Source of the DNA: Coraliomargarita sp.
Lineage (GTDB): Bacteria > Verrucomicrobiota > Verrucomicrobiia > Opitutales > Coraliomargaritaceae
Direction: 5' to 3'
Length of the DNA: 64,000 nt
NCBI GenBank assembly: GCA_965216325.1
Contig: OZ244160.1
Coordinates: forward strand, 1,536,001-1,600,000
Shown: positions 15,469 to 19,570 of the stretch, one piece after another
Layout: each line of letters starts with the position of its first letter
How positions within the stretch are numbered: the stretch's first letter is position 1
The notes under the pieces: model-generated
The model's database searches: none
Seen by the model: only the letters and a program-made list of their open reading frames with translations
Told to the model about the DNA's origin: nothing
Position numbers and translations under genes: made by a program

Positions 15469-15675
15469 TCGCACGGGACATTCCGAAACCAATTTTGGAG
15501 GTGCGCTTGCTATGAATGGATAGCGAATGGCGAAAAATGACTGTTAAAACGCGCTTGAGGCGCGGAGGGAGCGGCAGGGCCGCGATTGAAAATTAAAGAT
15601 TTAAAATTTCAGAGTTACAAAGTTCGGGCAATGCGAGTGGAGTCTTCAATATTCAATCGATAATCTGAAATAAGT

Positions 15676-16236
15676 CTAAATCACACTCTCACTGGAGTCG
15701 TCGGAGGATAATAATTCGGCCCCGCCGAGCACTGCAGTGACCACGGGCAGCAGTTTGACCATGCGCGCCTGCCAATTGATGAGGGTGCCCAAGCGTTGTT
15801 CGGCGTGCTTTCGCTGCGCGGGATCTGGCTCTGCCTCGATTAAGTCGCGGATGCCTTGAATCCTCGCAGCTCCGGACTGCAGGTGCGGATTGAACTGGTC
15901 CTGAATGAAGCCGCGCACCAAACGCTTGATCGAGAGCTCCGGCACGTAGTGATCCTTACGACTTCCAGCCACATACTGCACCTTCACCGCACCAAACTGG
16001 CGTAGCAGCTTTAAGCCCTGGCTGACGGAACCCTTGCTGATTCCCAAGCGCTCAACCTGATCGTCAAAGGTGAGCGGACGCTCCGCACAATACAGCACCC
16101 CATAGATCTCCCCCACCGAGCGCGGTAAGCCAATCAAATTGGCGGCACGGACAAACATCTCGACCATCGCGACTTCCCAGGGCTGCAAGGCTCTGGAGGG
16201 CGCTTCTTCAAAGGGAACTGTGGGCTCCGAGGGCAT
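15676..16236 (-). CDS. GbsR/MarR family transcriptional regulator
   Basis: GLPRSVGEIYGVLY....LTFD....L.ISKGSVSQGLK.L...G.RKD.Y; likely ATG at 16236. Confidence 0.85.
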   Translation of the reverse strand: MPSEPTVPFEEAPSRALQPWEVAMVEMFVRAANLIGLPRSVGEIYGVLYCAERPLTFDDQVERLGISKGSVSQGLKLLRQFGAVKVQYVAGSRKDHYVPELSIKRLVRGFIQDQFNPHLQSGAARIQGIRDLIEAEPDPAQRKHAEQRLGTLINWQARMVKLLPVVTAVLGGAELLSSDDSSESVI

Positions 16237-16336
16237 GAGGAGGGTCCGCGCAGTGGATCCGTTATTAGTCTTTAGGTGTTGGGCATTAGGAGGGCAGGAA
16301 CACTGCAGAACCACTATTCATGAACAATCGCGCCAA

Positions 16337-16360
16337 TTTGTTCAAGTTTTTTTGAACAAA
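16337..16360. promoter_or_regulatory. inverted repeat, candidate operator
   Basis: TTTGTTCAA-N6-TTGAACAAA upstream of the regulator gene. Confidence 0.45.
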
Positions 16361-16499
16361 CCATACAACTAATGCATTTAGCGGCAAAGCTCAAGAGGGC
16401 TTCACCCTAGAATACCGAGGACGCAATCGAGCATTGCGACCACCCACACCAGCGGGCTTCGCAAGCAAAGCCCCTGCTATGTTCGTTTCTGTCAAGAGT

Positions 16500-16790
16500 G
16501 TAGAAGCGTGTGAGTGTTTTTACATAAGATAAGTGGTTTGTTTTGATTGCAATCGTCTTTGAGCGTCCACCGCGCATGGCCTCGGAGTTTCGATGATCCG
16601 GGATAACCTGCTATCCGTGTTTCTGAGTGTTTCTCAGAAGAGCACACTATGACCTATCCATTGGGTCATTCAAAAGCTTGGTGGCGAAGTGGCCTATTCT
16701 ACAAAATCGTTGTGTTGGCAACAGGGGCTTGGTCAGACTCACTCCGCACAAAGGAAAACTGCAAAAGAACGTTAAAATCAGAGGGTGAAG
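16500..16790 (-). ncRNA. candidate bridge RNA/seekRNA (boundaries approximate)
   Basis: Contains AAGCCCCT and TTGTAG (both target halves) around a hairpin, plus a 7-nt match to the IS end. Confidence 0.65.
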
Positions 16791-16811
16791 GCCTTTAGCG
16801 TTGGTTCGGAC

Positions 16812-17900
16812 TTATGGGTTTTGTCTGCTTATCAGTCCGAAGTCTTCGAGACTGCATTGGCCAGTGCGTATGCGCCACCAGTCCACGGCGAACTGCCGGG
16901 CGATGGCCACGGCAATTTTCTTGCGGGTCGCCTTACTGGTGGTCTCGTCGCTGAGCTTGGCCTGCCATTTACGCACCCCACTGTAGCCGGGATTCCACCG
17001 GATCAATAACCAGGCGCACTCTTGTAGCATATGCCGCAGGCGGGGACTGCCGTGTTTGTTGATCGAGCCCTGGAAACGCCGATTTGCACTAGTGTCTTCG
17101 CTTGGGCACAGTCCGGTAAAGGAACTGACCGCCTTGCGGTTGTTGAATCGCTTCCAGTTGCAGACCTCACGTTCGATCTGTTCATAGAGGACCACCCCCA
17201 TGCCTTTAGGCAGCACCCGTTCCGGCTCGAGCGCTTCGATACGTTCTTCGATGTTGCTGATTAGCTCGCTAAAGTGCAGGCAGTTTAACCGCAGTGGCTC
17301 CAGCAGGCTGATCAAAAAATCGTCGAGCTGTTCGAGTAGCTGCATCCATTTGCGCGGCTTCCACCAGCCGCTGGGTAAGGGTTGATCGTAATACAGTCCC
17401 AGACTCTTACCACGCTTGGCCGCACGGCCACGTTCTTTGACGAAGCTTTCACGCTGCCGGGTTAGGCTGCGGTGACGCTCTTCTTGCTCGCTGGGCACAC
17501 GCACGACACTGAAGCTGCGGTCATTGCCCCGCAGATAGCCGTCCAGACTCAAGACCATTTGCAACGCATCACGCGCGTCGGTCTTTACCTTCTTACCATG
17601 AGTGTCCCAGTTGATCGGGCGGATTACGTGGTTGTTCACGCCCATCGCCTTGAGCTTGCGGTGCAGGCTGTAACCAAAAGGACCGGCCTCGTAGCAACTT
17701 TGCAACTGCTCGCACTGAGTGCTCAGCTGCTTAATCCATCGAAGGAAGATATCAGGCTTCATGCGCTTCGCGCGTGAAGGGGCGCTGCTATCGATCTTCA
17801 TGACCACCACGTAGGTGCTCGCATGCACGTCAATGCCAAGCTTGATTACTGTGCCCAGTGCGTTCTTAGTTGTCCGTGTAGATGATGTGGGGTTTTGCAT
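16812..17900 (-). CDS. IS110-family DEDD transposase/recombinase
   Basis: GIDVH, YEAG, KTDARDA (DEDD) and GLCPSEDTSA...GSINKHG C-terminal domain. Confidence 0.93.
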   Translation of the reverse strand: MQNPTSSTRTTKNALGTVIKLGIDVHASTYVVVMKIDSSAPSRAKRMKPDIFLRWIKQLSTQCEQLQSCYEAGPFGYSLHRKLKAMGVNNHVIRPINWDTHGKKVKTDARDALQMVLSLDGYLRGNDRSFSVVRVPSEQEERHRSLTRQRESFVKERGRAAKRGKSLGLYYDQPLPSGWWKPRKWMQLLEQLDDFLISLLEPLRLNCLHFSELISNIEERIEALEPERVLPKGMGVVLYEQIEREVCNWKRFNNRKAVSSFTGLCPSEDTSANRRFQGSINKHGSPRLRHMLQECAWLLIRWNPGYSGVRKWQAKLSDETTSKATRKKIAVAIARQFAVDWWRIRTGQCSLEDFGLISRQNP

Positions 17901-17949
17901 AAGTTTATCATCATAGCACTTCCGTGCTCCTGATAAACGCCCATGTCAT

Positions 17950-19570
17950 CTACAACGCAAGGTAGGGGCGCGACTCGACGCGCCCGCCGACAGAGTAGCA
18001 ACCCGCCACACGTAAACGGGCGTGCGCGAGGCCCGCCCCTACAATACACGGGCCGAAAACAGAGACAGAGCCTATCCGGAGCATGGCAATGGCGGAGCAT
18101 TGCCCTCCAGCCAAATAGCACAAAGTTAAGCGCCTGGAGTTAAGAACGTAGGGCTTCTGCTTGCAGAATGCCGCAGCGTTGTAAGCCACGTCAGCGGCTC
18201 CGCCATTCGGCCTAAGCTCAGGATCGAAGGCAAGCAAAGCCCTACAACGCAAGGTAGGGGCGCGACTCGACGCGCCCGCCAACAGAGCAGCAACCCGTCA
18301 TACGTAACCGGGCGTGCGCGAGGCCCGCCCCTACAATACACGGGCCGACCACAGAGACAGAGCCTATCCGGAGCATGGCAATGGCGGAGCATTGCCCTCC
18401 ACCCAAATGACACAAAGTTAAGCGTCTGGAGTTCAGAACGTAGGGCTTCTGCTTGCAGAATGCCGCAGCGTTGTAAGCCACGTCAGCGGCTCCGCCATTC
18501 GGCCTAAGCTCAGGATCGAAGGCAAGCAAAGCCCTACAACGCAAGGTAGGGGCGCGACTCGACGCGCCCGCCGACAGAGCAGCAACCCGTCATACGTAAC
18601 CGGGCGTGCGCGAGGCCCGCCCCTACAATACACGGGCCGAAAACAGAGACAGAGCCTATCAGGAGCATGGCAATGGCGGAGCATTGCCCTCCACCCAAAT
18701 GGCACAAAGTTAAGCGTCTGGAGTTCAGAACGTAGGGCTTCTGCTTGCAGAATGCCGCAGCGTTGTAAGCCACGTCAGCGGCTCCGCCATTCGGCCTAAG
18801 CTCAGGATCGAAGGCAAGCAAAGCCCCTACAACGCAAGGTAGGGGCGCGACTCGACGCGCCCGCCAACAAAGCAGCAACCCGTCATACGTAAACGGGCGT
18901 GCGCGAGGCCCGCCCCTACAGTACACGGGCCGACCACAGAGACAGAGCCATCCGGAGCATGGCAATGGCGGAGCATTGCCCTCCAGCCAAATAGCACAAA
19001 GTTAAGCGTCTGGAGTTCAGAACGTAGGGCTTCTGCTTGCAGAATGCCGCAGCGTTGTAAGCCACGTCAGCTCGCCATTCGGCCTAAGCTCAGGATCGAA
19101 GGCAAGCAAAGCCCTACAACGCAAGGTAGGGGCGCGACTCGACGCGCCCGCCAACAAAGCAGCAACCCGTCATACGTAAACGGGCGTGCGCGAGGCCCGC
19201 CCCTACAATACACGGGCCGACCACAGAGACAGAGCCTATCCGGAGCATGGCAATGGCGGAGCATTGCCCTCCAGCCAAATGACACAAAGTTAAGCGCCTG
19301 AGTTCAGAACGTAGGGCTTCTGCTTGCAGAATGCCACAGCGTTGTAAGCCACGTCAGCGGCTCCGCCATTCGGCCTAAGCTCAGGATCGAAGGCAAGCAA
19401 AGCCCCTACAACGCAAGGTAGCGGCGCGACTCGACGCGCCCGCCAACAAAGCAGCAACCCGTCATACGTAAACGGGCGTGCGCGAGGCCCGCCCCTACAG
19501 TACACGGGCCGACCACAGAGACAGAGCCATCCGGAGCATGGCAATGGCGGAGCATTGCCCTCCAGCCAAA
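17950..19570. repeat. tandem array, ~5.6 copies of a ~292-bp BIME-like REP composite
   Basis: Unit starts at 17950, 18242, 18534, 18827, 19114, 19406; near-identical; five REP-like hairpins per unit. Confidence 0.95.

Follow-up and report, generated by a model that had tools for sequence, protein, structure and literature searches.

The insertion sequence, its copies and its target site

The 64,000-nucleotide stretch of the Coraliomargarita sp. genome analysed here (contig OZ244160.1; hereafter the window) carries an insertion sequence (IS) that consists of a single recombinase gene with 336 nt of non-coding sequence downstream and 49 nt upstream, and that adjoins a repetitive extragenic palindrome (REP). 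In all likelihood the element is an intact and probably active member of the IS110 family with the layout of the IS1111 type, in which the recombinase is guided by a structured RNA encoded downstream of its gene. The element, its target and the nearest unoccupied sites have the following positions in the window.

16476-17949, minus strand: the insertion sequence proper, 1,474 bp, with its ends fixed by nine flanks and 34 empty sites
16812-17900, minus strand: recombinase (transposase) gene, 362 aa, from the list of open reading frames (ORFs) and Pfam
17901-17949, minus strand: short non-coding end upstream of the recombinase gene, 49 nt, starting on the gene strand with ATGACATGGG
16454-16475, plus strand: REP hairpin GGGCTT-N8-AAGCCC with the core CT, the target half that adjoins the IS
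18821-18830, plus strand: unoccupied target site AAGCCC-CT-AC, from a genome-wide site search
19400-19409, plus strand: unoccupied target site AAGCCC-CT-AC, from the same search

The genome consists of one contig of 3.06 Mb and contains nine full-length copies of the IS, eight of them identical over 1,478 bp and the remaining one with a single substitution. On the plus strand of the window, AAGCCC-CT precedes the IS in all nine copies, and in most of them the left flank is the REP hairpin GGGCTT-N8-AAGCCC. The right side reads CT-AC in eight copies (ACAA and ACGA three times each, ACGC and ACGG once each) and CT-TC in the remaining one. Another 34 AAGCCCCTAC sites in the genome are unoccupied, 16 of which fit the pattern GGGCTT-N4-12-AAGCCCCTAC, and the two empty sites within the window (18821 and 19400) are followed by the same sequence as the right flank of the IS. 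The core dinucleotide CT is found on both sides of the element, at 16474-16475 and 17950-17951, and the flanks and unoccupied sites therefore indicate that insertion adds 16476-17949 plus one CT. Insertion is site-specific at a short core, and the junctions share the CT only, with no further duplication, as is characteristic of the IS110 family. A previous interpretation made without database searches (the sequence-only reading) had delimited the element as 16474-17951, both CTs included, and had reconstructed its target as aagccc-CT-ac; the boundaries are right, and the target agrees with the nine copies and with the existence of empty sites.

The region that begins exactly at the right junction of the IS (17950-19570) is a tandem array of a 292-bp unit, present in 5.6 copies with 96% matches. 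At the end of each unit, CTAC comes after a REP-like ...AAGCAAAGCCC, and two of the junctions between units make up perfect target sites that are empty. The array has many ORFs that overlap on the two strands, and these look like repeat artefacts.

The recombinase combines an N-terminal DEDD (RuvC-like) domain with the C-terminal domain PF02371, the combination that defines the IS110 family (PF02371, 52.9 bits; PF01548, 29.2 bits against a cut-off of 29.0). Residues D24, E71, D108, D111 and S271 are invariant across a 13-sequence alignment of relatives, and their positions suggest that they are catalytic. S271 is located in GLCPxxxxS, in agreement with the GL-P----S(t)G motif of IS1111-type proteins, and is followed by alanine in the window's protein and its closest relative. 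When the 13 relatives were used as a profile against the PDB, the transposases of ISCro4 and IS621 were matched with E-values of 1.9e-8 and 1.4e-5, respectively. Across 72,556 plasmids, every match of the recombinase was below 32% identity (at most ~31%).

A 20-nt inverted repeat with 80% complementarity joins 17877-17896 with 17935-17954; the first segment covers codons 2-8 of the recombinase gene, and the second the left IS terminus and adjoining flank. Its partner within the gene, CCCC-ACATCAT, encodes PTSS and is kept in relatives despite an otherwise variable N-terminus. In read-through transcripts, the repeat may fold into a leader hairpin and thereby hide the start codon.

Structured RNA downstream of the recombinase gene

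The region 3' of the recombinase gene can be aligned across related loci, and the RNAalifold consensus fold of the aligned tails comprises seven helices. The elements of this RNA that are relevant for recognition of the target and of the IS ends (the donor) are as follows.

16558-16751, minus strand: conserved structured RNA (bridge RNA or seekRNA), its extent as modelled by covariance model R1 and not as transcript ends
16692-16738, minus strand: target-binding domain, whose closing stem 16734-16738/16692-16696 is helix 2 and also appears in the minimum-energy fold
16709-16722, minus strand: inner hairpin of the target-binding loop, GUUG-CCAACA-CAAC (helix 3), with compensatory changes in 4/6 pairs
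16617-16645, minus strand: inner hairpin of the donor-binding domain (helix 5), with compensatory changes in 6/7 pairs
16723-16730, minus strand: 5'-side target guide, RNA AAGCCC-CU, equal to the plus-strand target half plus core, which would pair with the other strand
16699-16704, minus strand: 3'-side target guide, RNA UUGU-AG, complementary to plus-strand CT-ACAA
16649-16653, minus strand: donor guide GUCAU, matching the IS end ...GTCAT at 17945-17949
16608-16614, minus strand: donor guide AUAGC-AG, complementary to plus-strand CT-GCTAT (core plus IS end 16476-16480)

Covariation was counted on a MAFFT alignment that had not been fitted to any structure. In the consensus pairs, 92.5% of the cells are paired and compensatory changes are present in 19 of the 33 pairs; the observed values were reached in none of 500 shuffles, and sliding the partners by 1-3 columns reduced the paired fraction to 31-50%. 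The compensatory changes lie in helices 2, 3, 4 and 5. Helices 2 and 3 bound an internal loop whose two sides are the two target guides, and the same loop is drawn by the minimum-energy fold of the 342-nt tail. Helices 4 and 5 delimit the donor domain, which is the larger of the two. A conserved hairpin in which GUCAU would be locked with an upstream AUGAC was also considered, but a full partner is found in 8/26 RNAs only and the mean pairing is 3.88 compared with 3.62 in shuffled sequences, and it was rejected as a general feature.

The single substituted copy of the IS (near 2070236 in its own genome, G000:C1) differs at RNA position 133 by C>A, corresponding to window position 16619, in the 3' arm of the hairpin of the donor domain. 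The same copy is alone in occupying an off-consensus site, with CT-TC in place of CT-AC.

Covariance model R1 was built from 15 sequences and applied to 33 further loci, of which 23 were matched at E<=1, including 21 at E<0.001. Most of the ten remaining weak loci had no significant match, and neither did three distant plasmid loci of the IS110 family from Klebsiella, Alicyclobacillus and Roseomonas (best E>1); the model is therefore clade-specific.

The guide sequences had been read correctly from the window alone. The minus-strand string claimed for 16730 to 16699 indeed reads AAGCCCCU-GUUG-CCAACA-CAAC-GAUU-UUGUAG, and CTGCTAT is present at 16608-16614; ATGAC is present as well, although one base to the left of the proposed position, at 16649-16653 rather than 16650-16654. 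It might be argued that such matches arose by chance or are a relic of captured target DNA, the tail being only a 3' untranslated region with a sequence for end recognition. The shortness of the guides (6-8 nt) and the unremarkable total fold energy would suit this explanation, but the structure is backed by covariation, and the combined pattern AAGCCCCT-N10-30-TTGTAG, which occurs once in the 64-kb window, is expected only 0.01 times per window (100 shuffles). It is also at odds with the fact that the same RNA positions follow flanks that differ among many genomes, and do so again in a second IS of this genome, as described below, and we regard it as very improbable. The match between guide and flank was also recovered by an independent repeat search, as a 9-nt perfect inverted repeat (I20).

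Covariation of guides with flanks and ends in relatives

A scan for relatives with one genome per species yielded 20 loci, 18 of which carry Verrucomicrobiota-type names. These are from Thalassobacterium (72% identity) and from Candidatus Synoicihabitans, which has many copies (53-65%), and further loci were found in metagenome-assembled genomes of Opitutales, Opitutaceae and Puniceicoccaceae; the remaining two loci are labelled Candidatus Sulfotelmatobacter and "uncultured bacterium". In the window's class, 30 of 401 genomes, this one included, have a homologue of the recombinase at E<=1e-30. The structured RNA is conserved in the relatives from Opitutia (Verrucomicrobiota).

For the covariation tests, the right end of each relative was recognised by the motif TTGAC...CATAnn plus core, and the left end by the core plus ATGACATG with <=3 mismatches; an element for which one end was not located was omitted from the test of that end. 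Each group of near-identical RNAs or of shared targets was represented once, so that L031/L052 (with the window's target), L053 (like L055), L045 (a duplicate of L047) and L043 were dropped, as were the Synoicihabitans copies with the exception of L040. Matches to cognate and non-cognate DNA were compared by permutation, with the following results.

Core plus 7 nt of right-end flank, reverse complement, best match anywhere in the RNA (n = 22): 7.59/9 cognate and 6.26 non-cognate; 0/20000 permutations
5 nt before the invariant AG against the left-end flank, position-specific (n = 18): 2.94/5 cognate and 1.77 non-cognate; 0/20000
3 nt before the invariant AG against the left-end flank, position-specific (n = 19): 2.42/3 cognate and 1.25 non-cognate; 0/20000
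Right IS terminus (5 nt) plus core against the RNA (n = 22): 6.95/7 cognate and 6.42 non-cognate; 0/20000
GUCAU position against the reverse complement of the first 5 nt of the left end, position-specific (n = 20): 4.05/5 and 3.61; 15/20000

All four guides thus covary with the flanks and ends of their own elements, at homologous positions of the RNA. This is the check that the sequence-only reading had proposed, covariation of the 3' end against the flanks of homologous elements, and it upholds the assignment of both target and donor guides to the 3' non-coding end. The best match to the right flank is located at RNA positions 15-25 in 20 of the 22 elements, and the guides change with their targets in a readable manner: for instance, guide and flank are CGACACCG-CU and AG-CGGTGTCG in L041, ACGUGGC-CU and AG-GCCACGT in L060, CCCGCUG-CU and AG-CAGCGGG in L062, and UGACUC-CU and AG-GAGTCA in L036. 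In the 3' target guide the AG is invariant in the alignment, while the preceding 3-5 nt covary with the left-end flank. Within the Coraliomargarita genome itself, R1 detects a tenth RNA (83.5 bits), which belongs to a second, single-copy related IS outside the window (G000:C1 ~2769468-2771000) with an intact ORF of ~380 aa. In this RNA the 5' target guide, CUCCCCUC-CU, agrees over 8+2 nt with the IS's own flank, AG-GAGGGGAG. The target of this second IS, which is of the same clade, looks like a different palindrome (CCCCTCC...GGAGGGG).

With regard to the donor guides, AUAGC-AG matches its own terminus at 7/7 positions in 21 of the 22 elements, including those with the variants ATAGG, ATAAC and ATAGT, and at the GUCAU position the variant termini agree with the RNA as ATAAC/GUUAU in L067 and AAAAC/GUUUU in L074 and L056. 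It has to be considered whether the RNA guides the target choice only, and whether AUAGC-AG and GUCAU are instead features of the DNA, such as internal pseudo-ends or protein-binding sites that coevolve with the termini. ISPpu9 offers a precedent in its A'/B' boxes, internal copies of the end sequences that give alternative circles (PMC12288879); in addition, GUCAU is not complementary to the core, and the termini are mostly conserved, so that the donor covariation derives from few variants (ATAGG, ATAAC and ATAGT at one end, AAAAC and ATAAC at the other). Nevertheless, the two sequences flank the compensatory helix 5 just as the target guides flank helix 3, and helix 6, which is predicted across AUAGCAG, is without covariation, as expected if AUAGCAG is a single-stranded guide. 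Donor-binding loops are moreover established for the IS110 family (PMC11208160). A role restricted to the target is accordingly judged improbable, and a donor-binding function of the second RNA domain is preferred.

Several relatives deviate in their ends. At the right end of L074, four additional bases, GAGG, separate the terminus CATAGG-AG from the stretch matched by the guide. The tails of L064 and L077 extend much further beyond the RNA and contain large palindromes, and no right end is recognisable in L064 within the 243 nt available. The left end of L059 is tandemly duplicated (L059:1351-1460), with two tgtag-ATGACATGGGTATTGG... copies 50 nt apart. The right termini of L034, L033 and L035 (Synoicihabitans, Opitutales) are changed to CATGGC, CATAAC and CATAGA while the RNA is unchanged, and the gene of L034 has an internal stop; these look like decaying copies.

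Proposed mechanism and relation to known IS110-family systems

In the mechanism that we propose, a DEDD/serine recombinase would be guided by a structured RNA from the 336-nt region 3' of its gene. The internal loop of this RNA would present two target guides, AAGCCC-CU, which matches one strand on the left side of the CT core, and UUGU-AG, the complement of the other strand on its right side; together they would pick the foot of the REP hairpin, AAGCCC-CT-ACAA. In the second domain, GUCAU and AUAGC-AG would match the two IS ends in the joined state that they have in the excised circle. The IS would excise as a circle and cross over at the CT with a matching site, duplicating nothing but the shared CT. 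That the RNA is expressed and bound by the recombinase, that the circle forms and that a promoter arises at the circle junction are inferred from the family.

Several results weigh against this interpretation or reduce the force of its evidence. The score of the recombinase with NCBIfam model NF033542 (IS110 family RNA-guided transposase) is 137.8 bits, below the cut-off of 140 (E 4.7e-40, with positions 2-337 of 343 aligned), a narrow shortfall that we attribute to the divergence of this member; a PDB search with the single recombinase sequence gave no match. The minimum-energy fold of the 342-nt tail is not more stable than those of shuffled sequences (z = +1.05), and no Rfam 15 family was found at E<=1 over 15500-19500, the bridge RNA content of Rfam being unchecked. 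In the relatives, the ends were placed by motif homology and not by empty sites, and the permutations take no account of relatedness among the elements. When the whole RNA was scanned regardless of position, the two short guides were not significant (1511/20000 and 1663/20000). The long guide fits poorly in L074 (6/9) and L077 (5/9) and has its best match elsewhere in L038, and the short (3') guide fits poorly in L047, L056 and L066. The two core positions after GUCAU read AG in the RNA instead of CU, leaving the core unpaired. With regard to transcription from the circle, joining the ends would set TGACAT as the -10 element at 17-nt spacing, with only 3/6 positions matching, and a promoter scan of the linear element returned 0 sigma-70-like sites.

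The candidate -35 element of the junction promoter is the following.

16490-16495, minus strand: outward-facing TTGACA, 14 nt from the IS end, with TTGAC kept in most relatives

It is present where the sequence-only reading had placed it (as TGTCAA on the plus strand) and, by analogy with the family, is a candidate for the -35 of a promoter formed only at the circle junction. Given the conserved outward TTGACA and the weak -10, a junction promoter as known for the IS110 family is therefore plausible at this IS. If joined, the circle junction is predicted to read ...CATGTCAT-CT-GCTATG... on the plus strand. In DNA contigs from four runs of one study, the IS forms a repeat unitig at 6.7-10.4x the depth of its flanks; the circle joint was not seen in these contigs, which drop rare forms, and the result has no bearing on function. 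One short-sided joint (side 24) across 16475-17962 was observed, and is most simply a paralogous empty REP site.

The element shares most features with the IS1111 family, for which a downstream seekRNA has been described (Siddiquee et al. 2024, PMC11187229). As in IS1111, the long non-coding region is located 3' of the gene, an outward -35 lies near the right end and the protein has the GL-P----S motif. The RNA likewise carries a short match to each target strand, the one to the top strand coming first: read on the strand of the gene, the guide on the 5' side is the complement of AG-GGGCTT and that on the 3' side has the sequence TTGT-AG. A REP target is also described for ISPa11 of the IS1111 family. 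Unlike in IS1111, the motif has SA and not SG or TG at the serine, both in the protein of the window and in its closest relative, the protein has 362 aa instead of the published 330-350 aa, and the recombinase is no more than ~31% identical to any plasmid-borne IS110-family protein searched. The sub-terminal inverted repeats described for IS1111 are 11-13 bp long and near-perfect, with extensions of 7 and 3 nt; the terminal extensions here are 5 and 3 nt, and the repeat is weak and imperfect, its local score of 21.5 being reached by 71 of 2000 shuffles. This repeat is absent from the 25 longest inverted repeats, and is clearer by eye in relatives (ATGGGG...GTCAGGAG).

In IS621 (Durrant et al. 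2024, PMC11208160; PDB 8wt6), too, the core is a CT located at the foot of a REP (...CC-CT-AC), the recombinase is of the DEDD plus serine kind, and the RNA has two domains, each loop with a longer 5' guide and a shorter 3' guide that overlap the core. With the core read as CT, the order is the same in both: a guide identical to the left half plus core, a hairpin, and a guide complementary to the core plus right half. The two systems differ in that the RNA is encoded here at the opposite end, that the element itself is inserted the other way round with respect to the CT strand, and that the donor domain is larger and branched, with one donor guide lacking core pairing; the proteins are similar only by profile (the E-value of 1.4e-5 given above). 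ISPpu9 and ISPpu10 of Pseudomonas putida (PMC12288879; bioRxiv 10.64898/2026.03.19.712850) resemble the element in their REP target adjoining a GC-rich stem-loop and in AG (CT) at both junctions, but are of the IS110 type with the RNA upstream of the gene.

These departures, together with the hairpin at the start of the gene, could be taken to mean that the Opitutia clade represents a distinct architectural variant of RNA-guided IS110 recombination, which we consider doubtful as a whole. Under such a proposal, the IS1111-like position and guide order may go along with sub-terminal repeats that are merely vestigial; the donor domain may be branched, with one donor guide deliberately unpaired with the core; and the hairpin between left terminus and gene start may block translation of read-through transcripts, the recombinase being produced from the circle-junction promoter only.

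The element belongs to the bridge RNA or seekRNA kind described in 2024 (PMC11208160, PMC11187229), and opens no new mechanism. Full-text searches brought up no paper naming Verrucomicrobia alongside IS110 or bridge RNA. The supplementary tables of the same two papers may list members of the clade. What is added is a well-supported natural bridge RNA/seekRNA system from Verrucomicrobiota, a little-studied group, with a recombinase remote from the characterised ones, four guides that are readable straight from the sequence, and natural reprogramming that is visible both across ~20 elements and within one genome. On these grounds it is reasonable to include it when orthologues are screened for programmable recombinases, and to use it as a clean data set for the guide rules of the 3'-RNA layout.

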